Shown piece after piece: positions 4,061 through 24,721 of a DNA stretch of 64,000 bases (position 1 is the stretch's first letter; each line of letters starts with the position of its first letter). The notes beneath the pieces were generated by a model. The model was not told the origin of the DNA and made no database searches. It was given only the letters and a program-made list of their open reading frames with translations. The position numbers were made by a program, and so were the translations under genes. The stretch is from Elusimicrobiota bacterium (lineage in GTDB: Bacteria; Elusimicrobiota; Elusimicrobia; UBA1565; UBA9628), in NCBI GenBank assembly GCA_036676805.1, contig JAKFCD010000110.1, positions 66,378 through 130,377 on the forward strand, in the 5' to 3' direction.

Positions 4061-4061
4061 C

Positions 4062-6787: not shown

Positions 6788-6846
6788 CTGCCCGGCTGTC
6801 CCGGAGATCGCCTCGCGCACCCCCTTTTATGGATAGGAGGTGCTAC

Positions 6847-7419
6847 ATGGCCAAGCCCAAGCTGGACATCCCCATCGGCACGACCGGGGCGCGACCCTGG
6901 AAAGGCATCGTCTGGCATCACTCGGCAAGCCCTGACGGCGCGACCCGGGACTGGGATGGGATCGCACGCTACCACACCTCCCACCGCGTCGACTTCGAGA
7001 TCGTCTCTCCGCAGGAGTTTGAGCGGCGGCTCGCGCTCCGACAAGGAGCGAGCTTTCAGCGGCCGTGGAAAGACGTGGGCTACCACGGCGGGACTGAGTT
7101 CGTCGGAGAGAGCCCCGCGTTCCATTGGGGCCGGCGGCTCTCCATGATCGGAGCCCATGCCGGGGTAAAGGACGCCTCCAACCGCTTCAACGAGGAGTAC
7201 CTGGGACTCTGCTGCATCGGCGACTTCGACAAGGCCCCTCCGTCGCCGCAAATGTGGGACTTCAACCTGATGCTAACCCGCGCACTCATGGAGGTCTTCC
7301 GCATCCCGGCCGGCCACGTGATCGGCCACCGCGAGGTGTTCGACCGCCTGGGCGTTCCACGCCAGAAAACCTGTCCCGGTCGGAACTGGGACATGGACTT
7401 TTTCAGGAACGAGCTCTGA
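6847..7419 (+). CDS. N-acetylmuramoyl-L-alanine amidase (amidase_2/PGRP family) endolysin
   Basis: AGGAGG lies 6 nt before ATG 6847. 'IVWHHSASP' and 'TCPGRNWD' motifs are characteristic of zinc amidase_2 (T7 lysozyme/PGRP fold). Lysis-cassette context. Confidence 0.7.
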   Translation: MAKPKLDIPIGTTGARPWKGIVWHHSASPDGATRDWDGIARYHTSHRVDFEIVSPQEFERRLALRQGASFQRPWKDVGYHGGTEFVGESPAFHWGRRLSMIGAHAGVKDASNRFNEEYLGLCCIGDFDKAPPSPQMWDFNLMLTRALMEVFRIPAGHVIGHREVFDRLGVPRQKTCPGRNWDMDFFRNEL

Positions 7420-7730
7420 TGGGCGAGCTCAAACGGCTGACCCTGACGCTCGCGCGAAAGACGCTCGGAAGCGATCTCGCGCAGAACCTGATCCGGGACC
7501 TCAAGTCTCTGAGGGCGCTGTGGAATTGGATTTACATGGCCCTCTACGTCTGGATCTGCGTCTGGACGGTCTTACACCACCCGGATGCCATCCCGACGGT
7601 GGTCACGGTGACGGGCGGGGTGGTGTCGGTCATCTTCAGCGGCTACGTCCTGAGCCGCACCTACGAGAAGGTCAAAAACGGCGGGAATGGCCTGCCGCAC
7701 AACGAGGAGGAGAATGGGAATAGCGATTAG
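7419..7730 (+). CDS. holin-like membrane protein
   Basis: Start overlaps the amidase stop (TGATG). 103-aa product has two hydrophobic helices ('ALWNWIYMALYVWICVWTVL', 'VTGGVVSVIFSGYVL') and a charged C-terminus. Confidence 0.45.
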   Translation: MGELKRLTLTLARKTLGSDLAQNLIRDLKSLRALWNWIYMALYVWICVWTVLHHPDAIPTVVTVTGGVVSVIFSGYVLSRTYEKVKNGGNGLPHNEEENGNSD

Positions 7731-8313
7731 GCTGTTCGGAGTCGCGACGAGCGTCGTGTTCTTCGCCGTCCGGCGACCCAAGGAAGCCGCGGTTGTCTTG
7801 CTGGCCGCGCTCCTCGCGATGACATTGTGGAGGCTCGAGCGCGAGAAGAGTCACGCGCGAGAACTCGCCGCCAAGCTCGAGGGCCTGCCGCCCAATACAA
7901 AGCAGGTGGTGACGGTCCACCGCAACCACGTCATCACCAAATGGCGCGATGGGCCGACCAAGATCGAGTACCGCGACCGCTACCTGCCGCCCGAAGGCCA
8001 CGTCGAAGTCGTGACCAAGATCGATGAACCGGAAAAACCACCCGAGATCGTCATCAAAGACCGCGGATTCACAAGCCGCCTCGGCGCTGGGCTTGTCTAC
8101 TCCGGCGAACCGCTGCCGATGCTCGATTTGAAATGGGCCTACTGGCGGCGATACAGCCTGCTGCTCGGGATGACGCCGGCATTCGGAGGTTTGGGCGTCT
8201 CTCGCCATATCGATGACTTCACACCATTCAGCAATCTGGAACTCGTGGGCCTCGGTGGATTGGACTGGCGTGGCGGCCCCCGCGCCGGCATCGGGCTTCG
8301 CCTGAGCTTCTAG
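7714..8313 (+). CDS. putative Rz-like spanin / lysis accessory protein
   Basis: GGAGGAG RBS before ATG 7714. N-terminal TM helix, then a coiled-coil 'WRLEREKSHARELAAKLEGL' region. Last gene of the lysis cassette. Confidence 0.35.
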   Translation: MGIAIRLFGVATSVVFFAVRRPKEAAVVLLAALLAMTLWRLEREKSHARELAAKLEGLPPNTKQVVTVHRNHVITKWRDGPTKIEYRDRYLPPEGHVEVVTKIDEPEKPPEIVIKDRGFTSRLGAGLVYSGEPLPMLDLKWAYWRRYSLLLGMTPAFGGLGVSRHIDDFTPFSNLELVGLGGLDWRGGPRAGIGLRLSF

Positions 8314-8314
8314 G

Positions 8315-8330
8315 CCTCGACTCGTCGAGG
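8315..8330 (+). terminator. hairpin (cctcgac-tc-gtcgagg) after the lysis cassette, followed by an AT-rich promoter-like spacer
   Basis: Perfect 7-bp stem with a 2-nt loop immediately after the 8313 stop. The downstream 80 nt is markedly AT-rich ('ttacttctatcgccaaatttgccataattttccaattctttcg') in a GC-rich genome. Confidence 0.3.
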
Positions 8331-8409
8331 ACGCGTTACTTCTATCGCCAAATTTGCCATAATTTTCCAATTCTTTCGTCACAGAACCGCTATGTAGGAG
8401 ATTTGTGCC

Positions 8410-10944: not shown

Positions 10945-13757
10945 TGACCGGCAGCGGGACAATCGACCAACTCATCAAGAACTCCCCGTACAAGGAGCCG
11001 ATGTGTTATTGGTCCTACGATCGGGAGACGCGTTCGTTTAACCTCGTTGAGGGTAAGCGTCGGCCCGCAGGCTACGTGCGGGCATCAGAGAGTTCCCGCT
11101 CCTTCGACGACCCTGGGGAATTCATTGAACTGCCCCTCGTCAACAAGATCCGCGACCGTGTAAAGGCCTGGCGCGAACATCCCCACACGCCCTATGCAGG
11201 AACGACAGGGATCACCCGTCGACTCCTTGAGCACTGGCGCGACCCCTCTCAGCGGGACTCCAATCAGCGCCTGTTCTTCTGCCAACTCGAGGCCATTGAA
11301 ACCCTGATCTGGCTCGCCGAGGCCCCTCCCTCCGAGCGCCAGGGGATCGAGGTGCCCGGCGACGGCGGCCCTTTCACCCGCGTTTGTTCCAAGATGGCAA
11401 CCGGTTCGGGAAAGACGACGGTGATGGGGATGATTATCGCCTGGCAGGTGCTGAACAAGGCCACCTATCCCCAGGATAAGCGTTTCTCGAAGAACATCCT
11501 GATAGTCGCCCCAGGGTTAACGGTGAAGAGTCGTCTCCGAGTGCTGATTCCCGCCGGGGCCGATAACTACTACGAAGAGTTTAATCTAATTCCGCCCGGG
11601 CTTCACGATAAGCTGCGAACCGCCAAGGTGCTCATCCACAATTGGCATGCCCTGATGCCCCTTGACCCAAACGCCGGGCCGCGGGTCATGAAGAAGGGAG
11701 CAGAGAGCGACGAGGCCTTTACCCGGCGCATCCTGGCCGACATGGCCTCCGCCAGCGGCTTACTGGTGATCAACGATGAAGCTCACCATGCCTGGCGTGT
11801 GCCGCCCAAGTCCACGATCAAGGGTATCTCGAAGGACGAAATCGAGGAGGCCACCCAGTGGGTTGGCGGCCTCGACCGCATCCACAAGACGAGAGGAATC
11901 CTCCGTTGCTTCGACCTGACAGCAACCCCCTTCGCGCCCACTGGGAAACGGAGCGGCGAGGAGACTCTATTCGACTGGATCGTCAGCGACTTCGGACTCA
12001 ACGACGCCATCGAGGCCGGCCTCGTGAAGACTCCCCGCGTTGTAATCCGCGACGACGGCGTTCCCGACGCCAGGACCTACAAGTCCCGCCTCTACCACAT
12101 TTACATGGACCCGGAGGTCAAAGACGACCTCAACCGCAAAGCCGAGGCCCACGAGAAGCTGCCCGACCTGGTGATCAATGGGTACTACCTCCTGGGCAAG
12201 GACTGGCTGGAGACTGCCAAGGACTGGAGCAAGCGGGGATTTCCCACGCCGCCTGTCATGATCTCGGTCGCCAACCGAACGGAGACGGCGGCCCGCATCC
12301 AGTTTGCCATTACGCGCGGGAAGATCCGCATTGACGAGCTCAAGGCTCCGGACAAGACCCTCCACATCGACTCCAAGGTGCTGGACGAGGCCGAGGCGCT
12401 GGCGGAACCGGTGACCATCCGCGCAAACGAATCGGCGGACGATGAGACCGAGGACGACGAAGCTCCCATCAGGAAGCTTTCCAGAAAGGAGCAGGCGGAG
12501 TTGCTAAGGCGTAAGGTCGATACCGTCGGTAAGCCGGGACAGCCCGGCGAGCAGATCCAGAAGGTCATCTCGGTTGGGATGCTGTCCGAGGGCTGGGATG
12601 CGAAGACTGTGACGCATATCATGGGGCTTCGCGCCTTCACCAGCCAACTCCTGTGCGAGCAGGTGGTCGGCCGCGGCCTCCGGCGCACCTCCTACGACGT
12701 GAATCCCGATACCGGGCTTTTCGAGCCAGAGTACGTCAACATCTTCGGGGTCCCGTTCACCTTTCTGCCCCATGAGGGAGGCGATGGGCCGCCTCCGCCT
12801 CCGCCTCCGCCAAAAACTCGGATCGAGTCCCTGCCCGAGAATGTCGAGTTTCAGATTTCCTGGCCGAATATCGTGCGGATCGACCACGAGTTCCGGCCGC
12901 AGCTTGCGCTGGACTGGCCCAAGATCAAGCGCCTCACGATCAATGCCAACGACACGCGCACGCTGGCCGAACTCGCACCAGTGGTCGAGGGAAAGCCCGA
13001 CGCCACGAAGGTCACGGAGATAGACCTCGAGGATCTGGGCCGCAAGTTCCGCATGCAGAAGGTGATCTTCGAAGTCGCCGGCGACATTTTCGACCAGATG
13101 AAGCCCGGCTGGAAGGCAAACCGAGAGTACTTGCTGGCGCAGCTCATCAAACTTGTCGAGCAGTTCCTCACAAGCAATAAGCTGGACATCGATCCTCCGT
13201 TATTCAACCAGGATGATCTCAGACGGCGCATCCTCTTAACCTTGAATATGTCCAAGATCGTCCAGCACATCTGGGAGGCGATCCGGTTCTCCAACACGGA
13301 GGCGCTCGCTCCCGTCTTCGACACAGAGTGCCCCGTGCGGTCAACCGGGGACATGCGGCCGTGGTTCACCGGAAGGCCCTGCGAGCACACGAGGCGCTCC
13401 CATATCAGCCACTGCGTCTACGACAGCACCTGGGAGGCGAGCGAGGCCTTCAAGCTCGACCACGACAAGAGCGTCGAGGCGTGGGCCAAGAACGACCATC
13501 TCGGCTTCCAGGTCCTCTATATCTTCAACGGGGTCGTGCGGAAGTATTACCCCGACTTCATGATCCGCCTCAAGAGCGGCAAGATGCTGGTCCTCGAGGT
13601 GAAGGGGCAGGACTCCCAGGAGAATCGCACCAAGCGCGAGTTCCTGAAAGAGTGGGTGGAGGCCGTCAACGCCCATGGCGGCTTCGGGACATGGGCATGG
13701 GACGTCTCCCTCCAGCCGAAGGACTTGGCAGGGATACTTCTACGCCACAGCCGATGA
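10944..13757 (+). CDS. res: Type III restriction enzyme Res subunit (SF2 DEAH helicase plus C-terminal PD-ExK endonuclease)
   Basis: Walker A 'MATGSGKTTVMG', motif II 'VINDEAHHAW', and a C-terminal nuclease motif 'YYPDFMIRLKSGKMLVLEVKG'. Start overlaps the mod stop. Confidence 0.85.
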   Translation: MTGSGTIDQLIKNSPYKEPMCYWSYDRETRSFNLVEGKRRPAGYVRASESSRSFDDPGEFIELPLVNKIRDRVKAWREHPHTPYAGTTGITRRLLEHWRDPSQRDSNQRLFFCQLEAIETLIWLAEAPPSERQGIEVPGDGGPFTRVCSKMATGSGKTTVMGMIIAWQVLNKATYPQDKRFSKNILIVAPGLTVKSRLRVLIPAGADNYYEEFNLIPPGLHDKLRTAKVLIHNWHALMPLDPNAGPRVMKKGAESDEAFTRRILADMASASGLLVINDEAHHAWRVPPKSTIKGISKDEIEEATQWVGGLDRIHKTRGILRCFDLTATPFAPTGKRSGEETLFDWIVSDFGLNDAIEAGLVKTPRVVIRDDGVPDARTYKSRLYHIYMDPEVKDDLNRKAEAHEKLPDLVINGYYLLGKDWLETAKDWSKRGFPTPPVMISVANRTETAARIQFAITRGKIRIDELKAPDKTLHIDSKVLDEAEALAEPVTIRANESADDETEDDEAPIRKLSRKEQAELLRRKVDTVGKPGQPGEQIQKVISVGMLSEGWDAKTVTHIMGLRAFTSQLLCEQVVGRGLRRTSYDVNPDTGLFEPEYVNIFGVPFTFLPHEGGDGPPPPPPPPKTRIESLPENVEFQISWPNIVRIDHEFRPQLALDWPKIKRLTINANDTRTLAELAPVVEGKPDATKVTEIDLEDLGRKFRMQKVIFEVAGDIFDQMKPGWKANREYLLAQLIKLVEQFLTSNKLDIDPPLFNQDDLRRRILLTLNMSKIVQHIWEAIRFSNTEALAPVFDTECPVRSTGDMRPWFTGRPCEHTRRSHISHCVYDSTWEASEAFKLDHDKSVEAWAKNDHLGFQVLYIFNGVVRKYYPDFMIRLKSGKMLVLEVKGQDSQENRTKREFLKEWVEAVNAHGGFGTWAWDVSLQPKDLAGILLRHSR

Positions 13758-15865
13758 AGGTACAGACCCGAAAGGTTCTCCTGCCGAAGAGCGCGCGACC
13801 AAGTCCGGTGGCGTCGATACCTACATGGACCATGCTCGAGGCCGGCGATCTTCCGGTTCGCCAACTCGCGGCCTTTGCTCTGCGGGAAGGCCGGAGACCT
13901 CGGCCGATCTATACTGCCCACAAGTGGTTTGCGAGACGCCTGGGATGCGTCTTTCGAGCGATTCTCATTGGGGCAACCTCTAAGCCGAAGGACGATTTTT
14001 GGGCAGCCTACTACGGGGATGCCAACCTCAAGACACTCAAGGTCCTGGACCCGTTCGTCGGCGGAGGGACCTCTGTCGTCGAAGCTTCCCGCCTAGGTGC
14101 AACCACATTCGGAACCGATGTCGATCCCGTCGCATGCGCAGTGACGAGACTGGAACTTCACGCGGGATTGCTCCCCGACCTTAAGCCAGCTCTTGCGCGC
14201 CTTCAAGAGACAGTGGGAAAGAATTTGAGCCCGTACCACAAGACCCGTGACAGTTCTGGCCAAACCCATACCGTCCTCCATCACTTTTGGGTTCAGGTCG
14301 TGCGGTGCGCTGATTGCAGACACCAGTTCGAGGCACACCCAAATTTCCGCCTTGCCGAAGATGGCAAACATCAATGGGCATTCTGCTCGGCCTGCCACGA
14401 AATCCACAGACTTCCTGCAGCCCAGAACTCTTTCCGCTGCGCCAAGTGCGCCAATGAGACAGAGATCGATGCCGGACGAGTAGTTTATGGCACCGTCGAA
14501 TGTCCGAAGTGTCGGCTCCGGGAGCCATTGATCGAAATCGCGCGTCGAACGACCCGGCCTCCCCATTGGCGGATGTTCGCAAGCGAGGTTATTCCCGAGC
14601 AGAAGGGAACCCGCGCAGTGCCCATGCGCCTGAGAAAGTTCCTGCGGACGACGGGCTTCGATGACTCCCTGTACGAGGATGCCCATAAGGCACTGAGGAG
14701 ATGGAAACGGCGGCACCCCGGTCTCTTGCCCACCAAGGCGATCCGCGCGGGGCGGACCGACTCTCGACTTATCGACTACGGTTATCGAAAATGGACCGAC
14801 CTCTTCAACGCCCGGCAACTTCTTCACCTGTCCATGCTGGCGGAGGCGATCAGGCAGTTTGAGGGTCCCACCCGAATGGCGTTGTCGATGGCCTTTAGCG
14901 ACCATCTGACAACGAATTGTCTTCAGGCCTCGTATGCCTCGGGCTGGCGACGGCTGACTCCACTGTTTGGCGTCCGAGCTTTTCGCCATGTGCCTCGCCC
15001 AGTCGAAATCAACCCTTGGTCCGATGGCACCGGCCGTGGCACTTTCCCAAATACGATTCGCGGCCTGGCTCGCGCGGCCGAGTTTGCCCGAAACCCGAAA
15101 GAGCCGTACCGTGGTGGATTCCGACAGGTATCAGTCATCCCAGCGGATGACCCGCCTCTAATCACCAATACGGCGGCACAAGGACTAAATTTCCTGGAGG
15201 ACGAGAGCATAGATATCGTCCTAACGGACCCCCCGTACTTTGACAACATTGCGTACTCAGAACTGGCAGAGTTCTTTGTTCCCTGGCTCGAGAATCTCGA
15301 CGTGATCAAGCGCCGCGGAACGCGAGAGACAATCATGCTGCATGGGCTCGGCGGCAAGCGCGGCAAGGATCGCACCCTCGACAAGTACACTACCGGGCTC
15401 GGGGGATGCTTTCGAGAGGTCGCGCGCGTCTTGAAGCCAACAGGCCTCGTCGCATTCAGTTTTAGACATGCCGTTCCTGAGGCATGGCTTGCCCTAGCTA
15501 ATGCCATTGCATCCAATCCACTTAGAGTGGCGCAGGTACTGCCCGCGCCAGGAGAGGCCGGGGTAGGACTGCATGTCCACGAGGGCTCCGGCGTTTGGGA
15601 TGCCGTGTTCGTTCTTCGAAAAAACTCCCGGCCGCGATCCTCAAACGAACTGCGAGTCAGCACCCCCCAACAGCGTCAGGTGGATAGAATGGTCACCGCC
15701 TGGAAGAAAAAGCTGTATGGTGCGCCCCTTCCCTTCACCAAAATTGATCAACTCGCCCTAAGAAGAGCGTGTCTAATTTCGGCAGCCCTCATCTCGCGGG
15801 ACGCAAAGACCTCGGCTCAGCCAGGGACTCGTCTGCGAGATCTTTTGTCCGAACCCAAGGATTAG
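13754..15865 (+). CDS. second N6-adenine DNA methyltransferase (DUF1156-like, with CxxC zinc-ribbon insertion)
   Basis: ATGA overlap with res stop. Motif I 'VLDPFVGGGTSVVEASRLGATTFGTDVDP' is N-terminal. A Cys cluster follows (CADCRH...CSACH...CAKCAN...CPKCR). Motif IV 'IVLTDPPYFDNIAY' is C-terminal. The ORF-track start at 13328 is rejected because it lies inside res. Confidence 0.7.
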   Translation: MKVQTRKVLLPKSARPSPVASIPTWTMLEAGDLPVRQLAAFALREGRRPRPIYTAHKWFARRLGCVFRAILIGATSKPKDDFWAAYYGDANLKTLKVLDPFVGGGTSVVEASRLGATTFGTDVDPVACAVTRLELHAGLLPDLKPALARLQETVGKNLSPYHKTRDSSGQTHTVLHHFWVQVVRCADCRHQFEAHPNFRLAEDGKHQWAFCSACHEIHRLPAAQNSFRCAKCANETEIDAGRVVYGTVECPKCRLREPLIEIARRTTRPPHWRMFASEVIPEQKGTRAVPMRLRKFLRTTGFDDSLYEDAHKALRRWKRRHPGLLPTKAIRAGRTDSRLIDYGYRKWTDLFNARQLLHLSMLAEAIRQFEGPTRMALSMAFSDHLTTNCLQASYASGWRRLTPLFGVRAFRHVPRPVEINPWSDGTGRGTFPNTIRGLARAAEFARNPKEPYRGGFRQVSVIPADDPPLITNTAAQGLNFLEDESIDIVLTDPPYFDNIAYSELAEFFVPWLENLDVIKRRGTRETIMLHGLGGKRGKDRTLDKYTTGLGGCFREVARVLKPTGLVAFSFRHAVPEAWLALANAIASNPLRVAQVLPAPGEAGVGLHVHEGSGVWDAVFVLRKNSRPRSSNELRVSTPQQRQVDRMVTAWKKKLYGAPLPFTKIDQLALRRACLISAALISRDAKTSAQPGTRLRDLLSEPKD

Positions 15866-15880
15866 CCGGGGAGAATCAAG

Positions 15881-18800
15881 GTGCCATACCTTACCAAACA
15901 GGTCATCTCCAACTATCTCAGAAGCGAATGCCGGCGCAGGCTTCGCCTCGATCTCTCCCCTGACAATCAACGCTATCGAGCTGAACGTACTGCCCAAGCC
16001 ATGCCACCCGAGGCAGTCGGTCGGCCTGGCCTTCGGGCACTCGCCGCTGCAGGGACAGAATGGGAGGAGTCGAAGCTAAACGACCTCGTTCAAACCCTTG
16101 GCACGGCCGCTCTCATCGGAAATTCAGTTCGAACGACCACGGGCTCACTCCGCTTTTCCGAAACCCCACTATCCGGCGTCATTGGGCGCGCAGCCCCAGG
16201 CACATTCATCGTCCAGGGGGAGTATGACCTGGGTCCGGGCTTCGAGGCCGCCCTGGGAATCGCCTCGCTTCGCACAGCGCATGCGCTCAACTACGGGCAA
16301 CTTCGACCCGATCTCATCCAGGTACTCGCTCCCGGCACGCAATCCCACGCAGTACGGCCCGATGGGACGATCATCGATGTGCCACAGGGCGATCAACGTC
16401 TCCCACTGCGCGTAATTGAGATCAAGTTAACCGCCGAGCCTTCCGTCCCGTATTTCGTCGAAGTCACATACTACTCCATGGCCCTCGCCGCATGGCTGGC
16501 AGACCATCAGCTCGACAATCGCTTCTTTGTCGTTCCGGAAGCGGCGGTATGGCCGGGCTCGCACGAGGCCTCCGCCGTCGTGCGTTTTCAATCCGAATGC
16601 CAGGCACAGGGGATTACGCCCACCTCGGCCCAGTTGCTGCAAGCCCTCGCAGGTGACCTCGAGATCGGCGAATTTAGCGTCTTCGCTCCTCGGCTGAGGC
16701 GATTCTTCCAAGAGGAATTGGCGGCCGTACTCGGGCAACCGTGGCGGCAGCTCGAATGGCATGTTGATAACCGTTGCATCGGATGCGAGTACTTGGGATA
16801 TCCATGGCCTGGGACGACCCCGAATCCCGATCACTGTTGGCCCATGGCCAATACGCAGGATCACCTGAGCCGGGTGGCTTTCGTCTCTCGGGGAGCTCGG
16901 AACGCCCTTGAGGAAAATCTGATTGGGAGCGTCGCCGCGCTCGCGGGCACTCAGCCGGACAACGTCGCATTCGATTCACATCATGTGCTCCGCGCGACAC
17001 GCACCGTCGTCGCCGGAAGGGCCCAGTCATTGACCACGGGACAGGCGGCGGTGCCCCCTCAGGCCGGCACCTCTGCCGTGATGCCTCGGTGGACGGATCT
17101 CCGCATTTACCTTACCGCCGACTTCGACATCGGTAGTGGTATAACCATGGCGTTCGGCTTCAAAGCTGTCTGGGGCGTCGCTCAGAATCGCATCCAACAG
17201 GGTCAGCAGCACTTCCACGTCTGGCAAGCGCAGGCATTCCCCATAGACCAGAGGGACCCCGCAGTTGAGCAGCGGGAGCTTCTTCGGTTGCTAGATGCCG
17301 TGGACCAGGCGCTTCGATTTGCGACGGCGACAATTCCGACCGCAACCGTTCAAGTCTACGTCTGGGATTCCCTGACCTATGATCATCTCGTCCGAGTCAT
17401 CGGCCGCCATCTCACATCGATCATTCAAAACCGCCTGCTATCTCGTCTCGCCTGGCTGTTCCCGCCGGATACTCTTGTCGCCAACCCTGACATTTCGGAC
17501 CGGTTTTGCCCCATCACGGTCTTACGCGACGTCATGCGCGCGGTCATCGCTGCGCCGGTTCCCCATTACTACAGCTTGCTCAGCGTGGCCCGCGAATACC
17601 ATTCTGCGAGAACCCAGCCTCCATTTGATCGGTTTGATGTTCCGACGTTCTTTGAGGACCCCCTGTCTGACCAGGTCCCCTCAGAACGCGCCCACGAAAT
17701 ATGGTCGCGGGCTACAGGCGCACGGCCGTGGAACGTCCAACTTCGCAGTCTTGAACGAACTGTACAAGTGAAGCTGAATGCCATCGAGAGCATCGCCGAT
17801 AGGCTCGGGGCAGACCTTCAGGGGCAGCTCAATCAAACTGCTCCTCGGATCACCGATCTGCGAGCCCCGAGCCTGCCGCGGAGGATGGCAGATGACGCGA
17901 GGCTATGGTCAATCTTTGCGAGGCTGAATGTGGCATTGGAAGAACTTGAAATAGAGAAGACCCATGCAATGCCGCCGCATGAGCGGGAAGCCCGTTTCAA
18001 AAGTGCTTGGCTGACGAATCGTCTCGCGGGCCCGGCTGCTCAGCAGGTACTTACGCGCTTCGGGCTACAGCCGGCCTCTAACCGACTCGTTTTCACCATT
18101 CGGCCGGGCTCTCGCGAGGTCAAGGCGAAGGAAGGAGACTTTACCTTTGCGCTGGCTCCTGCAAGCGCTCCAGGGTTCCTCGGGCGACGAATTAGAACTG
18201 TAGCAGGGGCAGTTCAACTTCCACTCCCGGGAACCAATGACGAATGGAAGCCCATGGAGTATGTCACCGGCGTCTCCGTCCAGGCTATAGATCGGGATGC
18301 AGGCCACATCGTTCTTGATCTAGACACAAGATGGGCTCCCGTCTTCTTTGCACTCGAGCAAGCCGGTGTTGTGAATTTCTCAACAGATGTGATGCTTGAT
18401 CCGGTCCACAGGGATTTCTTCACGAAACGTCTGGACAAGACTCTCAACGCCATCGGAAATCCTCCCATCGCAATCGCGCATCCTGGCGTCGGACAAGCAA
18501 TCGGGCGAGCGAGGCGAGCGACCGCAGGAGCTGTCAGTCCAGTGGCAGATGTCTACTGGAATTCCGCAGCGCTATATGGATCTCAAGTTCAACGCAACCT
18601 GCCGCCGATTCAGACGCTGCTTTCCGCAAGTCCTGACTTCGACCTCAATCAGAGCCAATGGCAGGCGTGGCAGGAATCCCTGACTCATCGCCTGCGCCTG
18701 ATCTGGGGGCCGCCCGGCACGGGGAAGAGCCGCACGCTTCGAACAATCGTGATGGGCGCCTTTCATGAAGCCTCTCAGCAAGGGCAGCAGATGCGTGTCT

Positions 18801-20146
18801 TGGTTACCGGCCCGACCTACGAGGCTATTGACAACGTACTCCTCGGCGTCGCCACAGCTCTTATGGGAACGGGGCCTCTCGCGCTGCAACAAACACTCAT
18901 TGCGAGACTTCGTTCCACGACGCGACCGTCGGACTCGGCAGTGCCTCAGCAGATCGATGTTCCGACTGATCCATCGTCTCAGGCATTCCAGCAGTTGCGC
19001 GGCCGACTACAGCAGGCGCAGGGGCTGACACTCGTAGGGGCCCCGGTCCAACAGGCATACAAATTGATGGATTCAGCGGGACGGCCAGTCCAGGAGTTTT
19101 TCGACCTCGTCATCGTCGATGAAGCCTCTCAGATGGATGTCGCCACTTCGACTTTAGCGCTCGCAGGACTTGCGACAGGCGGCTCGGTTGTTGTCGCTGG
19201 AGATCCTCAACAGTTGCCGCCGATCCACCAGGCGGAGCCGCCGACAGGACTCGAGCACATGGTCGGGCCTCTCTTCAAATATCTGCGAGACCGCCACAAC
19301 CTAACTCCCTTGGTTCTGGATGTTAACTACAGATCGTGCTCAACCATCGTTGAATTGGCCCACGCGGCGAATTACCCAAGAACGCTTCAATCCTATTCAC
19401 CCAATCTTCGGCTCGAAGTTACTACGCCCATTCCAGCCGCTGCAGCCCCTCCTCAGGGATGGCCGCCTGGTTTGCTCTGGACTCCAGAATGGGCAGCGCT
19501 CCTCGATCCTGCGCAGCCAGCAACCTGCTTCATCTATCGGGAAGGACGCAGCAGCCAGTGGAATCAGTTCGAAGCCGATGCCGTCGCATCGCTCGTCTGG
19601 TTGCTTGCGAACCGGGTGGGCGACCACCTGGTGGACGAGCGAATCGCCCCAACTGGGAACATCCAGCCTACGATTGGGCTTCCATACTCCATGCAGGATT
19701 TCTGGAATAGGGGGATTGGGATTGTAACTCCGCACAGAGCGCAGCAGGCTCTCATTGTGAATCGTCTCCAATCGCTGTTCCCCGGTCCAGACGGTCGGGA
19801 TATCCGCGAAGCAGTGGACACGGTCGAGCGATTCCAGGGCCAACAACGGGACGTAATGTTGGCGACCTTCGCATTGGGAGACCCTGACGCCATTGGCGAT
19901 GAGGACGAATTTCTTCTCAGCCTCAATCGCTTCAACGTAATGGTGTCGCGGGCTCGCGCGAAGCTTATCGTATTCGCTTCGCAAGAGGTGGTCGACCATA
20001 TGTCTTCCGACATGAACGTCTTGCGTCAGTCGGCGCTACTAAAAACCTTCGTGGAGCCCTTCTGCAATCAGGGGAGGCCGATGATCCTCGGCCACATGCG
20101 CGCGGCCGGACCTCATCAGGTTCCGGGACGCTTCCGTTGGCGCTAA
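15881..20146 (+). CDS. DNA2-like nuclease-helicase: N-terminal RecB/PD-(D/E)xK-type nuclease plus C-terminal SF1B (Upf1/DNA2-like) helicase, 1421 aa
   Basis: GTG start 9 nt after GGGGAGA. Helicase motifs 'LIWGPPGTGKSRT', 'LVIVDEASQMDV', 'LDVNYRS', 'TVERFQGQQRDV', 'NVMVSRARAKLIVF'. N-terminal 'RPDLIQV ... VIEIKLTAE ... YYSMALAAW' resembles PD/ExK/QxxxY nuclease motifs. Confidence 0.7.
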   Translation: MPYLTKQVISNYLRSECRRRLRLDLSPDNQRYRAERTAQAMPPEAVGRPGLRALAAAGTEWEESKLNDLVQTLGTAALIGNSVRTTTGSLRFSETPLSGVIGRAAPGTFIVQGEYDLGPGFEAALGIASLRTAHALNYGQLRPDLIQVLAPGTQSHAVRPDGTIIDVPQGDQRLPLRVIEIKLTAEPSVPYFVEVTYYSMALAAWLADHQLDNRFFVVPEAAVWPGSHEASAVVRFQSECQAQGITPTSAQLLQALAGDLEIGEFSVFAPRLRRFFQEELAAVLGQPWRQLEWHVDNRCIGCEYLGYPWPGTTPNPDHCWPMANTQDHLSRVAFVSRGARNALEENLIGSVAALAGTQPDNVAFDSHHVLRATRTVVAGRAQSLTTGQAAVPPQAGTSAVMPRWTDLRIYLTADFDIGSGITMAFGFKAVWGVAQNRIQQGQQHFHVWQAQAFPIDQRDPAVEQRELLRLLDAVDQALRFATATIPTATVQVYVWDSLTYDHLVRVIGRHLTSIIQNRLLSRLAWLFPPDTLVANPDISDRFCPITVLRDVMRAVIAAPVPHYYSLLSVAREYHSARTQPPFDRFDVPTFFEDPLSDQVPSERAHEIWSRATGARPWNVQLRSLERTVQVKLNAIESIADRLGADLQGQLNQTAPRITDLRAPSLPRRMADDARLWSIFARLNVALEELEIEKTHAMPPHEREARFKSAWLTNRLAGPAAQQVLTRFGLQPASNRLVFTIRPGSREVKAKEGDFTFALAPASAPGFLGRRIRTVAGAVQLPLPGTNDEWKPMEYVTGVSVQAIDRDAGHIVLDLDTRWAPVFFALEQAGVVNFSTDVMLDPVHRDFFTKRLDKTLNAIGNPPIAIAHPGVGQAIGRARRATAGAVSPVADVYWNSAALYGSQVQRNLPPIQTLLSASPDFDLNQSQWQAWQESLTHRLRLIWGPPGTGKSRTLRTIVMGAFHEASQQGQQMRVLVTGPTYEAIDNVLLGVATALMGTGPLALQQTLIARLRSTTRPSDSAVPQQIDVPTDPSSQAFQQLRGRLQQAQGLTLVGAPVQQAYKLMDSAGRPVQEFFDLVIVDEASQMDVATSTLALAGLATGGSVVVAGDPQQLPPIHQAEPPTGLEHMVGPLFKYLRDRHNLTPLVLDVNYRSCSTIVELAHAANYPRTLQSYSPNLRLEVTTPIPAAAAPPQGWPPGLLWTPEWAALLDPAQPATCFIYREGRSSQWNQFEADAVASLVWLLANRVGDHLVDERIAPTGNIQPTIGLPYSMQDFWNRGIGIVTPHRAQQALIVNRLQSLFPGPDGRDIREAVDTVERFQGQQRDVMLATFALGDPDAIGDEDEFLLSLNRFNVMVSRARAKLIVFASQEVVDHMSSDMNVLRQSALLKTFVEPFCNQGRPMILGHMRAAGPHQVPGRFRWR

Positions 20147-21030
20147 AACCGCGGATGCGCCCTCTGGCAAGCCTTCTTCAGATGCTCGGCTGTGACGTGG
20201 GTGTAGCGGGCCGTCGTCAGCACGGACGCGTGACCCAATAGCTCGGCAAGGGTCCGCAGGTCGACGCCTCCCTGGAGCAGATGCGTCGCGCAGCTATGGC
20301 GGATCTGATGGGGCGTCACGCGGCCAAGAAGCCCAGCCCGGCGCGCTGCCGCCCCAAGACGCCTCCCGAAGCCGCCACGAGTGATCGGACCCCGGCCTCG
20401 CCCATTGAGAAACACGACGTCGCCCGTCGCCGGGAAGCGCGCGGCGCGGGCATCAAGGTAGCGCCCCAGGGCGGCCCCAGCGCGGGGCCCGAAGGGGACA
20501 AGGCGCTCCTTTGAGCCCTTCCCCGTCACGCGCGCCCAACCCTCCCGGAGGTCTACCTGCCCCAGGCGCAGGCCGGTCAGCTCCGAGACCCGCATCCCCG
20601 TGGCGTACATGAGCTCGAGCATGGCGTGGTCGCGCAAGGCCGCGAACTTGCCCCCCACAGGCGGGCGAAGCAGGCGATCCATGCCCTCCTCGGCCAACGG
20701 TTTCGGGATTCGCTGCTTGAACCGCGGCAGCCTCATCCCGCTGGTCGGGTCGGCCGGGACGAGGCCGACCGCGACCAGATGGCGATGGAACTGTCGGACG
20801 GCCATCGCAGCGATGAATAGCGACGCGGACTTGAGCCCGGCGTCCCGGCGGCGCTCGTGGTAGGCGAGGACGTCGCCGCGGGTGGCAGTGGCCACCGCCC
20901 GGCCATTCTCCCGCAGGTGGGCCACGTAGGCCCCGAGCTGATACCCGTAGGACAGGCAGGTGTTGGGGGCAAGCCCCCGCTCCACCCGCAGATGCTGCAC
21001 GAAAGCGTCGACCAGCGGATCAGTCGCCAT
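20143..21030 (-). CDS. site-specific tyrosine recombinase, XerC/XerD family (295 aa, no phage-type arm-binding domain)
   Basis: N-terminus 'LVDAFVQHLRVERGLAPNTCLSYGYQL'. C-terminal catalytic region 'RHSCATHLLQGGVDLRTLAELLGHASVLTTARYTHV'. The size and N-terminus match Xer-type recombinases rather than phage integrases. Confidence 0.8.
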   Translation of the reverse strand: MATDPLVDAFVQHLRVERGLAPNTCLSYGYQLGAYVAHLRENGRAVATATRGDVLAYHERRRDAGLKSASLFIAAMAVRQFHRHLVAVGLVPADPTSGMRLPRFKQRIPKPLAEEGMDRLLRPPVGGKFAALRDHAMLELMYATGMRVSELTGLRLGQVDLREGWARVTGKGSKERLVPFGPRAGAALGRYLDARAARFPATGDVVFLNGRGRGPITRGGFGRRLGAAARRAGLLGRVTPHQIRHSCATHLLQGGVDLRTLAELLGHASVLTTARYTHVTAEHLKKACQRAHPRF

Positions 21031-21039
21031 CGACGCGCC

Positions 21040-21465
21040 CTACGCCTTCTGGACGACGCGCACCCGCTTCTTCTCGTCGCGGACCACCTGCCAGCCCTTC
21101 CTGGCGTAGGAGACCATCCGGGCCCGCACGTTGGCCTGGAGGTCCTTACCCTTGGCGGCGTCGCCGGCCTTCTTGGCGAGCTCGGCGGCGATCTCCTGGA
21201 CCGTATGCTGCCCCGTCGTCAGCATGGGGTCGATGAACGCCGCCAGCGACCCATCCCTGCCCGCGCCCTGGGCCTTGCCCGCCTTCTTCACGCCGTTGGC
21301 GGCGACCGTCTTCGCGACCTTCCCGTTCTTCTTCGCCATAGCTCTCTCCTCCCATTCGATTCGTCGGACCTCTTCCGCGCAGCCGTGGCAGGCGAAGCCC
21401 GCGAAGGACCGCCTCACCACCAGCCGTCCGGCCATCACGTTCGTGCCGCACTTCTCGCAGATCAT
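21040..21465 (-). CDS. small basic Lys/Ala-rich putative DNA-binding protein, possibly with an N-terminal zinc ribbon (alternative start 21366)
   Basis: A strong internal RBS (GGGAGGAGAG) precedes 'MAKKNGKVAKTVAANGVKKAGKAQGAG'. Upstream in frame lies 'CEKCG...CHGC'. The C-terminal 'GKDLQANVRARMVSYARKGWQVV' module is shared with the 22869-23291 product. Confidence 0.45.
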   Translation of the reverse strand: MICEKCGTNVMAGRLVVRRSFAGFACHGCAEEVRRIEWEERAMAKKNGKVAKTVAANGVKKAGKAQGAGRDGSLAAFIDPMLTTGQHTVQEIAAELAKKAGDAAKGKDLQANVRARMVSYARKGWQVVRDEKKRVRVVQKA

Positions 21466-21474
21466 CGCCTGCTC

Positions 21475-21714
21475 TCAGGCCAACTCGTCGGGCTTGGCTC
21501 CGGGCCGGAAAGACCCAATGAGTTTCTCCACCTCGCGCATCTCCTTGCGGCGTTCCGTGAATTCGGAAATGCCGTGCGACACGCCGCGCGCCACGGCCAC
21601 CTCGACTTCCTTGCGGCCGAAGCCGAGTTGCAGCGCCCGGATGACCTGGTCCGCCAGCAGGTCGGTGACCAGACAGTTGAGCACATCGTCCTTGGGCATC
21701 TTCATCTCTTTTCC
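21475..21714 (-). CDS. hypothetical small protein (HTH-like)
   Basis: GGAGG RBS precedes 'MKMPKDD...'. The segment 'GFGRKEVEVAVARGVSHGISEFTERRKEM' resembles an HTH. Confidence 0.4.
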   Translation of the reverse strand, partial: GKEMKMPKDDVLNCLVTDLLADQVIRALQLGFGRKEVEVAVARGVSHGISEFTERRKEMREVEKLIGSFRPGAKPDELA

Positions 21715-21932
21715 TCCCGGAGCGCGGCGTCGTATTTCTTGAAGGCGGTCATGATGCGCTCGGCCTCCCGCTGCGCCTCGTTGCAGGCCGTGTAGACGGC
21801 GTGGATCTCCTCGGGGTCGAGCCCTCCCTTGAATTGGAGAGCCAGACCCTTGGCGTCCGTCTCGAAGCAGATGTCGGTGAATTCGCTCGAGGGGTGCGGC
21901 CGCGTCACGACCCAAAACTTCTCGATCTTCAT
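21702..21932 (-). CDS. hypothetical small protein
   Basis: GGGAGG RBS. 'MKIEKFWVVTRPHPSSEFTDICFETDAKG...' has coding-like composition. Its 3' end overlaps the next gene's start (21702-21714). Confidence 0.4.
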   Translation of the reverse strand: MKIEKFWVVTRPHPSSEFTDICFETDAKGLALQFKGGLDPEEIHAVYTACNEAQREAERIMTAFKKYDAALREEKR

Positions 21933-22141
21933 TGGCCCCTCCCAGGTGCTTGAAGCTTCTCTCGAATGAGGTGGATCGCCAACCCAAACGCCTCGGCGGC
22001 CGCGCAATTGCCGTCGTTGATCGCCTCGCCGAGCCATTCGTCCAAGACCGCCTCCGCCTCCCTCAGGTACGAGGGGTGTCGCGCGTTCTTGGCCGCGATC
22101 TTCGTCACCGTGTCCTTGTCGAATCTCTCCCTGGTCGCCAT
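21929..22141 (-). CDS. hypothetical small protein
   Basis: GGGAGG RBS precedes 'MATRERFDKDTVTKIAAKNARHPSYL...'. 4-nt overlap with the downstream gene. Confidence 0.4.
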   Translation of the reverse strand: MATRERFDKDTVTKIAAKNARHPSYLREAEAVLDEWLGEAINDGNCAAAEAFGLAIHLIREKLQAPGRGQ

Positions 22142-22543
22142 CTCTTGCCTCCCACCCTCGGGGCAAACCCCTTGGGTCAGGAAGGAAGCTACAGCGACTT
22201 CCCGAAGTAATCCATAGGCCTGAAGGCCCAATTCTCGTCGGAAAGCCGCAACACCTTGCGACGTTCGGCTCGAAATTCGGGACCCCGAATCGGAGGCGAA
22301 AAGTCGCGCGAATTTGGGGAAGACGCCGGCCGCCGCGATGCGCTGCGGCGGCCGGGCTACTTCGATGGGCTTGGCCGCTGCTCCCGGCGGCCGCGGATCG
22401 CGCGGACGTGGGGCAGGAACCCGCTCGCTGGCTTCGCGTGGAGCAGCCGCCACAAGAACGAGTCGATGCCGCCCCAATCGACGCGGTCCTCCCACACGGT
22501 GACCACGAACTCTGTCAGGATCAGCCGCTTGCGCCGGGCCACT

Positions 22544-22795
22544 CTACGCGCCCGACCCGGCCTCCGCAGCCTTCAGGTAGCCCTCGCGCTTCAGGCGATC
22601 CGAGATGGCCTCGAACCCCAGGCTGTAGAAGCTCGTGCCCGTGGCCTTCTTGTACGCCTTCGCCGCGTCCAGGAGATCCTGAGTGACGCGGATCGCGCGG
22701 ACGATTGGCTTGGGAGGCCCTTCGGGCTTCGGCGCGGCCTGCTTGGCGGCGGGTGCCGCCGCGGTCTTCTTTCCGTTTTTCTTCGATTTGGACAT
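22544..22795 (-). CDS. small basic Lys/Ala/Pro-rich (histone H1-like tail) protein
   Basis: AGGAGGGA RBS 5 nt before the ATG. The N-terminus 'MSKSKKNGKKTAAAPAAKQAAPKPEGPPKP' has a KKNGK prefix that is shared with the 21040 product. Confidence 0.5.
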   Translation of the reverse strand: MSKSKKNGKKTAAAPAAKQAAPKPEGPPKPIVRAIRVTQDLLDAAKAYKKATGTSFYSLGFEAISDRLKREGYLKAAEAGSGA

Positions 22796-22868
22796 GGTGT
22801 CCCTCCTCTTGGTCGGGCGGTTGGCCGCCCGTTGCGAGGACAGGACTACCTTCTAACTCGGCGGCTCA

Positions 22869-23291
22869 TCAAGCTACCTGGCAGGGATGCGCCCTAAGAT
22901 GGCCGTTCGAGTCCTTCTCGATCCGGTATCCCTTCGCGCGGAGCCAGTAGACCCGGGCGCGGACGTTGGCTGGGAGGTCCTTGCCCCGGCAAGCGGCGCT
23001 GGCCTTGCGCCTGGTCTCGCGTAGTATGCCGCGCATGGTCAGCTCTCCCCGGACCAGGAGGGAGTCGATGACCGCGGACAGGGGCGGGCCCGATGCGCGC
23101 GCCGGGGTCGCGCCAATGGCTGGAGCGCCCCGCTGGACTCGCTTGAGGGGGTAGGCCGCCGGGATCGCGTAGCGATTGCCCGAGGCAAGGCTGGTCACGA
23201 TCATGGCCCCAGGGCGCGCCACCTCGACCCGGACTGAGAGGCCGGAGGCCGTGACGCAGATGTCGCCCCTCCCCGGCCTATGGGTCGCCAT
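22869..23291 (-). CDS. hypothetical protein with C-terminal module paralogous to the 21040-21465 product
   Basis: C-terminus '...CRGKDLPANVRARVYWLRAKGYRIEKD' compared with 'KGKDLQANVRARMVSYARKGWQVVRDE'. The N-terminal ~90 aa are unrelated. Confidence 0.45.
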   Translation of the reverse strand: MATHRPGRGDICVTASGLSVRVEVARPGAMIVTSLASGNRYAIPAAYPLKRVQRGAPAIGATPARASGPPLSAVIDSLLVRGELTMRGILRETRRKASAACRGKDLPANVRARVYWLRAKGYRIEKDSNGHLRAHPCQVA

Positions 23292-23677
23292 GGCCCCCCG
23301 ATTCGCTGCCCTGTTGGGGCGGCGATGGTGGTAAAGTCCAGCCGTTCTTCAAACGACCGGATTCGAACTTCTTGCTCTTGGGGCGGGCATCCGAACGCGC
23401 GTCGCCTCGCTCGAAACCCGCCTCCGGGTCTCGAAAAACCTTCTCGCCGTTCGCGATCAGGGCGAAATCGGCGGGCCAGCGGGCCGGGAAAGACGGGATA
23501 TATTGCGTTGTTTCGGTCGATGGAACAGGCGGACGAATTAAAGCGGTGGTATTATGACCTCGCCGTCCCCGCCAGCTTTTCCGTGATTCGGCAACCGCTG
23601 TTTCAGTCCCGTTTTTTCGCGGGTCAGGGACAGCGGTTATTATTTTGGATTCTCAGCTTGCTCGTGGGGGAGGCGCC

Positions 23678-24205
23678 ATGCTTGAAAACTGCTCGAGGGC
23701 CTTGGGGTCGCTGCTGGGCGCAATGCTGGTTTTGCAGTCGGTCGGCTGCGGGACCATCCTGCATCCCGAGCGCAAGGGGCAGCAAGCCGGAAAGATCGAC
23801 GTGGCCGTCGCCGCTCTGGATGCGATCGGCCTGCTGTTTTTCATCGTTCCCGGGGTGATCGCTTTCGCCGTGGACTTCAATAACGGGACGATTTATCTTC
23901 CCGCGGGCGGGAAAGGCCTGCTGAACCGGAACGATTTGGAAAAAGTGAGATTCGATCCCCGGGCCAACGCCAAAGCGAACGTCGAGAAGGTCCTTCGGGA
24001 AAGAACCGACCTCGTTATCCAATTGGACCAAGATGACCTGGAAGTCATCGAGTTGATGTCCCTCGATGAGCTGCCGGCGCGCTTCGCTTCCGCGTCGAGG
24101 GTAGGCAACTCGATCCGGATAGCCATGATGACAAGCGATTCGTTCAAGAAGCCCGGCGGGGTCATGGCTCCGCCCGCGGCTAAGGACGAACCGTCAGTCC
24201 GTTGA
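23678..24205 (+). CDS. lipoprotein, hypothetical
   Basis: GGGGGAGG RBS. Signal peptide with lipobox 'LVLQSVGC'. Confidence 0.5.
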   Translation: MLENCSRALGSLLGAMLVLQSVGCGTILHPERKGQQAGKIDVAVAALDAIGLLFFIVPGVIAFAVDFNNGTIYLPAGGKGLLNRNDLEKVRFDPRANAKANVEKVLRERTDLVIQLDQDDLEVIELMSLDELPARFASASRVGNSIRIAMMTSDSFKKPGGVMAPPAAKDEPSVR

Positions 24206-24611
24206 TCACCTTGCCTTGGCCCGCGAGCGCCTCGGCCCGCCTGCCGGCCTCGGCCTTGTCCCACTCGGTGCGCACGATCCCGCTGAGAATCACGCTGCCC
24301 CGGTTCGTCTCGACGCGCAGGCCGTCGACGGGGATTCCGGCGTTGCCCATGGGCGGAAGGCCCTGAAGCTCGTTGGGGCCCCGCGTGATGGAGATGAAGA
24401 CGTTGACCGTCAGCGGCCGGCCGCTCGGGGAGGGCGGGGCCGGCGTTCCGGCCGGGCGCGGCGGCTGGAGCGTCTGGCTCGGGTTGATCGGAGGGATCGT
24501 CTGGCTCGGGTTGATGTTCACCGGAGGCCTCTCCGTGCGCATGCGCCTGACTTCCTGCGCGACCGCGAAAGACGCGAGCAAGACCAGTATGAGCGGAGAT
24601 GAGCTTTTCAT
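24180..24611 (-). CDS. secreted BON-domain protein with Pro-rich tandem repeat
   Basis: Signal peptide 'MKSSSPLILVLLASFAVAQ'. Repeat 'NINPSQTIPPINPSQT' arises from a DNA direct repeat at ~24470-24520. C-terminal BON-like 'SVILSGIVRTEWDKAEAGRRAEAL...VINGLTV'. Confidence 0.55.
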   Translation of the reverse strand: MKSSSPLILVLLASFAVAQEVRRMRTERPPVNINPSQTIPPINPSQTLQPPRPAGTPAPPSPSGRPLTVNVFISITRGPNELQGLPPMGNAGIPVDGLRVETNRGSVILSGIVRTEWDKAEAGRRAEALAGQGKVINGLTVRP

Positions 24612-24721
24612 CGCGAACCTCCCGGGGAGCGTCTCGGCGCCCGCCTCGAGCGTAGTTTAGCGGCGCCCGGCGGGCGCGGCCATGGAGGCGCGGGAACGGC
24701 CCCGTCAGGCTTCCGTGACGC

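Follow-up and report, generated by a model that had tools for sequence, protein, structure and literature searches.

A 64,000-nt stretch of an Elusimicrobiota genome (assembly GCA_036676805.1, contig JAKFCD010000110.1, positions 66,378 to 130,377; the window below means this whole stretch) carries a gene for a 1421-aa protein, here called BIG, which was analysed together with the gene directly upstream, encoding a DNA amino-methyltransferase of 703 aa (MT703). By sequence comparison, BIG is a divergent member of the Bad family of bacterial DNA2-like nuclease-helicases and not a new kind of protein. BIG and MT703 probably constitute a two-gene defence module resembling restriction-modification (R-M) systems, carried as cargo by a prophage. 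We infer a role in defence, for which BIG is a strong candidate restriction effector. Architecture, folds, residue conservation, family membership, methyltransferase linkage and the mobile and defence-related context were established for BIG itself, while an iron-sulphur (Fe-S) cluster, single-stranded DNA (ssDNA) endonuclease activity, processive 5′-3′ unwinding and loop extrusion may be expected by analogy with the homologue characterised in the literature. The two genes and the domains of BIG are located as follows.

13754 to 15865, + strand: MT703, DNA amino-methyltransferase, 703 aa, the cognate partner of BIG (phrog_10183, 4.9e-80; Pfam N6_N4_Mtase)
15881 to 20146, + strand: BIG, Bad-family (bacterial DNA2-like) nuclease-helicase, 1421 aa (open reading frame list and translation)
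15881 to 16855, + strand: residues 1-325 of BIG, predicted Cas4/Dna2-type PD-(D/E)XK 'iron-staple' nuclease
16856 to 17065, + strand: residues ~326-395, (HhH)2-like helical DNA-binding module (predicted structure)
17078 to 17725, + strand: residues ~400-615, RNase H-like / DnaQ-type exonuclease fold (predicted structure; activity putative)
17726 to 18595, + strand: residues ~616-905, long helical (coiled-coil-like) segment and beta-barrel (predicted structure)
18623 to 20050, + strand: residues ~915-1390, Upf1/Dna2-like helicase of superfamily 1B (SF1B); Walker A K949, motif II D1080-E1081 (Pfam and PDB profiles)

The start codon of BIG is GTG and is preceded by GGGGAG. An initial annotation, made from the sequence alone, had described a 1421-aa open reading frame (ORF) with SF1B helicase motifs, and each of the quoted motifs was found in the translation: GPPGTGKS at residues 943-950, DEASQ at 1080-1084, YRS at 1150-1152, QGQQRD at 1319-1324 and VMVSRAR at 1353-1359, all of them invariant or nearly so across the family. 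Conservation was counted in 202 full-length relatives with identities down to 26%, and K949 and D1080 were present in 202 of 202. Pfam assigned AAA_11 (4e-21) and AAA_12 (5.6e-18) over residues 922-1368, and the best profile match to a solved structure was mouse DNA2 (E 7.7e-21), followed by Sen1, IGHMBP2 and Upf1. When compared with the PADLOC and NCBIfam models, the helicase part matched DpdJ (9.8e-50) and MkoA (8.3e-30) and also IGHMBP2, PLuB, ProA and Hhe. The matches to defence models were confined to residues ~914-1391 and reached 35-96 bits in NCBIfam against cut-offs of 349-2000. Membership in DpdJ, Mokosh (MkoA/MkoC), Hhe, ProA or PLuB was rejected because only the helicase matched and the scores lay far under the cut-offs.

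For the remainder of the protein, AlphaFold2 models were built for two segments (residues 1-400 and 381-920), each from a family alignment of 58 sequences. Structure prediction had been proposed with the initial annotation as the check on an N-terminal PD-(D/E)xK fold, and the model of residues 1-400 (pLDDT 90.9) left that idea standing; its lower-ranked structural matches were MGME1, RecE, Exo5, AdnAB, AddB and lambda exonuclease. The PD...EIK...Y spacing noticed earlier was located at P143-D144, E180-I-K182 and E194xxxY198 and is conserved in the 202 full-length relatives, the catalytic residues being D144, E180 (D in most relatives), K182 and E194/Y198. Overlooked at that stage were four cysteines that form an Fe-S signature, one before (C17) and three after (C299, C302, C319) the nuclease motifs, which are the predicted cluster ligands. 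D144, K182, Y198, C299, C302 and C319 occur in all 202 relatives, position 180 is always D or E, and C17 is kept in 190, with a gap at this position in the other 12. Judged by its sequence pattern, the domain carries the 'iron-staple' Fe-S nuclease signature known from AddB, Dna2 and Cas4. The conservation of nuclease residues, the four cysteines, Walker A and motif II in all or nearly all of the 202 relatives points to purifying selection.

The region between nuclease and helicase had been described as lacking a recognisable motif. This was correct for Pfam, which at E≤10 returned no match on residues 1-350, 351-700 or 701-920, but the predicted structure resolves known folds. Residues 381-920 (pLDDT 82.4) start with a beta-beta-beta-alpha-beta-alpha core, an RNase H-like fold that was closest to exonuclease domains of the DnaQ type, and continue with helices at residues 617-696 and strands forming a beta-barrel at 709-841; the helical segment and the barrel are possibly equivalent to the stalk and 1B elements of Upf1/Dna2-type helicases. 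A Foldseek search of the PDB with this model gave nothing below E 0.05 (the top match, Upf1 at E 0.056, was not significant), and the central-domain alignment, searched as a profile against the PDB, found no match. Four acidic residues of the RNase H-like core are strongly conserved among the 202 relatives: D416 (200 D, 2 E) ends beta1, E463 (201 of 202) opens helix A, D496 (187 D, 8 E) follows beta4, and E602 (196 E, 4 D) lies in the C-terminal helix. In the model these residues appear to occupy the metal-binding positions of RNase H-like enzymes, and the pattern is nearer to RNase H than to DEDD exonucleases. A canonical DEDD exonuclease was set aside as unlikely, since the expected motifs (D-x-E for ExoI, D for ExoII and (Y/H)-x(3-4)-D for ExoIII) do not appear to fit the central domain. 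Catalysis by this domain is putative. The assignment of an (HhH)2 module and an RNase H-like/DnaQ-type fold with a conserved acidic triad is new for a domain that the authors of the Bad paper called "completely unknown" in structure and function (PMC7430649).

Bad, the prototype of the family, is a 1245-aa protein of Geobacillus stearothermophilus described by Wilkinson, Carrasco et al. (Nucleic Acids Research 2020; PMC7430649). It carries an Fe-S cluster, acts as a Mg-dependent ssDNA endonuclease that is abolished by D150A, and has an ssDNA-dependent ATPase activity that is abolished by K815A (PMC7430649). Its motor translocates and unwinds in the 5′-3′ direction over more than 4 kb at ~200 bp/s while extruding a loop of the non-translocated strand, and the nuclease is placed ahead of this processive motor (PMC7430649). 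The bad gene adjoins a Type III Mod-like methyltransferase gene (GCCAT, N6-methyladenine), and its authors proposed that Bad may be a subunit of a new class of restriction enzymes (PMC7430649). For comparison with BIG, an alignment of Bad-like proteins was seeded with a Methanoculleus homologue and included relatives from Methanohalobium and Competibacteraceae; proteins of Methanoculleus, Methanohalobium and Competibacter are listed as Bad members in Supplementary Figure 1 of that paper (PMC7430649). An alignment of the two families with hhalign gave a probability of 100% and E 6e-132 over 1206 columns (query 4-1402, template 20-1264) and was continuous, with the central domain included. The four cysteines, the D...D-x-K...Y residues and D416, D496, E602 and W608 align and are conserved in both clades; E463, invariant in the BIG clade, is Cys in the Bad-like clade. 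BIG shows these features of the Bad family: the iron-staple nuclease, the conserved central domain, SF1B motifs 1-6 and a neighbouring methyltransferase.

The family is large. A search with the N-terminal 900 residues returned 398 close relatives, and the best 120 of these 398 were mostly ~1420 aa long; an exhaustive search yielded at least 561 clusters at 50% identity, of which 230 had E≤1e-30; full-length matches among the 150 listed had the same length and layout as BIG. Relatives were found in Phycisphaerae, Rubrobacter, Chloroflexota, Delta-, Gamma- and Alphaproteobacteria, Bacteroidota and Archaea, and many are labelled 'Dna2' by JGI. To call the design of BIG unusual was thus an overstatement, given 561 clusters and a prototype that was published in 2020 together with a restriction hypothesis.

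Evidence for an R-M-like module comes from gene neighbourhoods. Altogether 106 related loci were collected from genomes, IMG/VR and metagenomes and collapsed at 90% identity of BIG into 69 clusters; the viral and metagenome scans used an alignment of the central domain only (A3), and the scan of genome contigs, which was saturated by the Walker-A pattern, contributed 6 loci. An adjacent DNA methyltransferase gene was found in 60 of the 69 clusters, and 7 of the other 9 were without flanking sequence. The arrangements were:

45 clusters: MT703 orthologue immediately upstream of BIG
4 clusters: MT703 orthologue downstream of BIG on the same strand
1 cluster: MT703 orthologue ~1 kb downstream of BIG on the opposite strand
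7 clusters: another N6_N4-type methyltransferase, of 370-460 aa, directly downstream and, except at one locus, in convergent orientation
3 clusters: adjacent Dam/D12-class methyltransferase
2 clusters: flank present, no methyltransferase recognised (L008; archaeal L010/L011)

An MT703-type partner was thus present in 50 clusters altogether, and the partners belong to three unrelated types. Swapping of partners among three methyltransferase families with adjacency kept is the classic signature of a modification-dependent toxin/antidote pair, as in R-M systems. Clustering with housekeeping helicases of conserved chromosomal context, which had been named as the finding that would speak against a defence role, was not what emerged: the BIG clade adjoins a methyltransferase in 60 of 69 non-redundant loci and resides in variable defence islands, prophages and plasmids. 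Two annotated plasmids carry a convergent 'site-specific DNA-methyltransferase', one of them beside an anti-phage dGTPase and a DUF262 protein; other neighbours of BIG relatives are BREX, Type I R-M, TIR, HipA and serine or tyrosine recombinase genes. Relatives were present on ten IMG/VR viral contigs, and the isolated phage genomes of INPHARED contained no match to BIG.

Several single loci are recorded here for their gene content. In an IMG/VR contig (L020, 1013-5640) the BREX genes PglZ and BrxL, the latter with a C-terminal MIT_C/PLD-like part, lie directly upstream of the BIG homologue and a convergent methyltransferase gene, and in Rubrobacter marinus (L005) BrxB/BrxC/PglX-like genes follow directly downstream. 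In a metagenome-assembled genome (MAG) of Ardenticatenaceae (L008, 8604-10304), the only co-directional gene abutting the BIG homologue is a 566-aa ORF, which had no Pfam match and could encode an unrecognised methyltransferase or a different partner.

MT703 itself shows the motif order FxGxG (VLDPFVGGGTS), several CxxC pairs (Zn-ribbon-like) and TDPPY. Compared with the usual PF01555 arrangement this order is circularly permuted, and MT703 weakly resembles defence methylases of the DUF1156/HmaB type; partial matches to the PADLOC models MTase_II and DUF1156_MTase-like were also obtained. BIG had been described as fused downstream of the methyltransferase, and this has to be corrected, as BIG is a separate gene that starts 15 nt past the stop of the MT703 gene.

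On this basis a mechanism can be proposed in which MT703 would mark host and prophage DNA as self, and BIG would load on 5′-tailed or single-stranded unmarked invader DNA and move 5′-3′ with ATP. The entry site might be provided by a complex with the methyltransferase, by breaks that neighbouring systems make, or by phage replication intermediates. The Fe-S nuclease ahead of the motor would cut the tracked strand, and the (HhH)2 and RNase H-like modules could form a second DNA-binding site that grips the non-translocated strand and possibly trims it, so that the invader would be unwound and shredded and not cut once. The initial proposal of a restriction effector that translocates along unmodified DNA and cleaves it gains support from the characterised member Bad, which translocates 5′-3′ and cleaves ssDNA (PMC7430649). 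For BIG, discrimination of unmethylated DNA, the role given to the central domain and defence itself are what we infer.

A number of observations weigh against this proposal. No experiment ties any family member to phage defence or methylation sensing, and within the literature searched no follow-up on Bad as a restriction enzyme was found. Neither the PADLOC 2.0 nor the NCBIfam antiphage set holds a whole-protein model for the BIG family. Assignment to the Bad family was made through homologues from genera listed in the paper that describes the prototype, WP_053413574. Bad needs a 5′ ssDNA tail and does not unwind nicked or intact duplex (PMC7430649), so that the entry site must come from something else. 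The D150A variant of Bad lost all detected nuclease activity on the tested substrates (PMC7430649), which weakens the putative trimming by the RNase H-like module. Finally, a shorter Bad-like clade from Archaea and Competibacter has no adjacent methyltransferase in three loci, and in Methanoculleus the Bad-like gene is followed by the repair genes for an HhH-GPD glycosylase and a UvdE UV-damage endonuclease (L110, 10115-11939). Because of these three loci, a restriction role may apply to some clades only; a repair role for the shorter archaeal clade, and hence a functional split within the family, is suggested. The shorter archaeal Bad-like proteins that lack a methyltransferase neighbour were recorded in L110 and L107/L108.

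Beyond the single module, the pair of a methyltransferase and a Bad-like protein may represent a distinct, so far unclassified class of ATP-dependent R-M systems, a wider claim that we advance tentatively and hold at somewhat less than even chances. Such a class would be defined by an SF1B unwinding motor with two nuclease-fold domains, the Fe-S Cas4/Dna2-type domain ahead of the motor and the RNase H-like/DnaQ-type domain on the other strand. It would unzip unmethylated invader DNA and destroy it processively in the manner of RecBCD, in place of cleavage at or close to a site, and might also attach to Type III-like Mod/Res systems to supply them with a degradative activity.

The surroundings of BIG in the window comprise, apart from MT703, the following genes.

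117 to 7419, + strand: prophage tape-measure, tail and amidase/endolysin genes (PHROG tape measure, 2.5e-14)
8410 to 10944, + strand: Type III-like Mod methyltransferase, 844 aa, first gene of the cassette (PADLOC MTase_III, 4.8e-161; Pfam N6_N4_Mtase, 1e-32)
10944 to 13757, + strand: BPTD_3080-family Type III-like Res, 937 aa (NCBIfam NF046055, 1114.7 bits with a cut-off of 800; Pfam ResIII)
20143 to 21030, - strand: tyrosine integrase of the prophage, in convergent orientation to BIG, with a 4-nt overlap at the BIG stop (Pfam Phage_integrase, 2.8e-40; phrog_1, 1.1e-46)

Mod, Res, MT703 and BIG are four co-directional genes of which BIG is the last. The Mod stop overlaps the Res start at 10944, the MT703 start overlaps the Res stop as ATGA (13754-13757), and the gap between MT703 and BIG is 15 nt. 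Res is an SF2 DEAH helicase (ATGSGKT, DEAH) with a C-terminal PD...EVK, a nuclease of the PD-(D/E)XK/TnsA-like type. The Type III-like Mod/Res pair (8410-13757) is apparently intact and lies directly upstream in the operon of BIG; the prophage thus carries two methyltransferases and two helicase-nucleases within ~11.7 kb. The GC content of the cassette is 0.57-0.61, compared with 0.63-0.73 in the flanks, and the prophage carries the cassette as cargo at its integrase end, between the lysis genes and the integrase. Small ORFs join the tyrosine integrase in 20143-24700, and chromosomal genes start at ~24.7 kb (CtaA, xanthine dehydrogenase-like, amidohydrolases, DUF6986, trehalose synthase-like). 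Two overlapping ORFs are found between endolysin and cassette, 7687-8313 on the + strand (208 aa), which had no PHROG match, and 7672-8382 on the - strand (236 aa); if either is a gene, a holin, a spanin or a regulator would be candidate products. A tRNA gene marking the prophage attachment site was looked for and none was found; a promoter and terminator scan of 7000-21500 gave 0 promoter-like sites and terminator-like sites at the level of shuffled sequence.

The compact arrangement of these four co-directional genes, which overlap or nearly abut, suggests a composite system as the first alternative, in which Mod/Res would recognise and break unmethylated DNA and BIG would enter at the break and degrade it processively, with BIG and MT703 as auxiliary components. 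A DNA-breaking partner is mechanistically attractive because Bad cannot start on intact duplex and requires a pre-existing ssDNA entry site (PMC7430649), and UvrD-Cas4 fusions associated with Type III Mod/Res have been reported by Hudaiberdiev et al. 2017 (PMC5704561). Of the 69 clusters, 8 have a Type III-like Res, either BPTD_3080 proper or a distant relative with a TnsA-like nuclease, no further than ~5 kb from BIG, in several arrangements:

Mod-Res-MT703-BIG: the window
Res-MT703-BIG: L056/L058
BIG-MT703-Res: L075, with 928 bits to BPTD_3080 a true member of that family
convergent arrangement: L042
Mod-Res-BIG, then a convergent methyltransferase: L007 and L021-L024/L026

In ~87% of the loci, however, the methyltransferase-BIG pair occurs without Type III-like genes in the examined flanks. 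Clustering is usual for defence genes in any case, and the pair is also adjoined by BREX and Type I R-M genes; moreover, a further dedicated methyltransferase would be superfluous in a host that had protection from Mod. As most loci lack Type III-like genes, the four-gene system was ranked as a rival or add-on and not as the core, and we regard it as unlikely. A literature search for BPTD_3080 and for AAA_11/AAA_12 with a methyltransferase returned nothing relevant. As a separate observation, in the gammaproteobacterial MAG locus L007 (6390-7535) a 381-aa PNP_UDP_1 protein of the nucleoside phosphorylase superfamily is encoded in the place that MT703 fills in the window, with the Type III-like Res on one side and the BIG homologue on the other; a weak relative is present in L054 (26-1171).

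A second alternative is that BIG serves housekeeping or mobile-element DNA processing, such as Dna2- or AddAB-like end resection, flap removal or fork repair on behalf of host or prophage, the methyltransferase being unrelated or regulatory (epigenetic). The biochemistry of Bad closely resembles that of Dna2 (PMC7430649), many members carry the JGI label 'Dna2', and the archaeal Bad-like clade lies beside HhH-GPD glycosylase and UvdE genes and lacks a neighbouring methyltransferase. Such a function is nevertheless quite improbable for BIG in view of the sporadic distribution, the variable and island-like contexts, the methyltransferase pairing that persists through swaps among three families, the annotated defence genes next to relatives on plasmids, and the position of the window gene in low-GC cargo between prophage lysis genes and integrase. 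Slightly more improbable still is a methylation-independent sensor-effector whose targets would be 5′ flaps, ssDNA gaps and similar intermediates of phage replication or recombination, while the methyltransferase serves another purpose, e.g. protection from a different restriction activity or anti-restriction for the prophage: Bad favours 5′-overhang junctions and displayed no sequence specificity in the reported assays (PMC7430649), and the small stand-alone Dam-like partners of some loci make a conserved methyltransferase-BIG recognition complex less obvious, but the adjacency in 60 of 69 clusters, which persists through several gene orders and three methyltransferase families, would be difficult to account for if function did not depend on methylation.

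The two-gene R-M-like module thus remains the preferred explanation. The Bad family and its restriction hypothesis were already in print (PMC7430649), with the single-molecule biochemistry well described; the present analysis adds how widespread and consistent the methyltransferase linkage is, which folds the central domain has, and that an association with Type III-like genes recurs. It makes the strongest genomic case so far for one large Bad clade as the effector of a methylation-linked defence module, a module that is missing from the PADLOC 2.0 and NCBIfam antiphage models. If true, it would add a restriction mechanism based on an SF1 unwinding motor.

Comparison with known systems places BIG as follows. 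The SF1 helicase defence proteins DpdJ, MkoA/MkoC, Hhe, ProA and PLuB have an AAA_11/AAA_12-type core in common with BIG, but none has its N-terminal 900 residues with the Fe-S nuclease and the RNase H-like domain. AddAB, RecBCD and AdnAB are multi-subunit, Chi-regulated machines for the repair of DNA ends, whereas BIG combines its SF1B motor and nuclease in one chain, and no evidence of a repair role was seen for it. Type III R-M systems, like BIG and its partner, combine an ATP-dependent helicase-like motor and a PD-(D/E)XK nuclease with an N6_N4-type methyltransferase. Their Res subunit belongs to SF2 (DEAH) and has its nuclease at the C-terminus, in contrast to the SF1B unwinding motor, the N-terminal Fe-S nuclease and the extra RNase H-like domain of BIG. 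Type III Res slides without unwinding. BIG matched neither the REase_III model of PADLOC nor the BPTD_3080 model of NCBIfam. UvrD-Cas4 fusions, a predicted defence component, join a Cas4-family Fe-S nuclease to an SF1 helicase, and their genes neighbour those for Mod/Res and methyltransferases (Hudaiberdiev et al. 2017, PMC5704561). Their helicase is of the SF1A (3′-5′) class and, as the name and pfam12705 imply, is apparently followed by the nuclease, whereas BIG has an N-terminal nuclease and an SF1B (5′-3′) motor; identity with these fusions was rejected because helicase class and domain order differ.

Eukaryotic Dna2 (PDB 5EAN), to which BIG had been likened from the start, shares the order of an Fe-S PD-(D/E)XK nuclease followed by an SF1B helicase. 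This likeness holds for the order, but a central module of ~500 residues with (HhH)2, RNase H-like fold, helices and barrel sets BIG apart, and the linkage of nuclease and helicase by barrel and stalk alone, a trait of Dna2, was not found in BIG. Dna2 is essential and ubiquitous in eukaryotes, whereas BIG is sporadic, mobile and methyltransferase-linked. The central domain of Bad is likewise absent from Dna2 (PMC7430649).

Bad has the same three-part plan as BIG, i.e. an Fe-S iron-staple RecB nuclease, a central domain and an SF1B helicase (PMC7430649), with four cysteines in the same pattern and a DNA methyltransferase gene as neighbour in both cases. Compared with the sampled Bad-like clade, BIG is ~25% identical and longer by ~170 residues, owing to inserts that lie in the nuclease domain, in the 700-900 region and in the loop linking the second to the third C-terminal cysteine; the C-terminal cysteines are spaced C-x2-C-x16-C in BIG and C-x2-C-x5-C in the Bad-like proteins. 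The partners differ as well, that of BIG being a permuted, Zn-ribbon-containing enzyme of 700 aa and that of Bad a Type III Mod-like methyltransferase.

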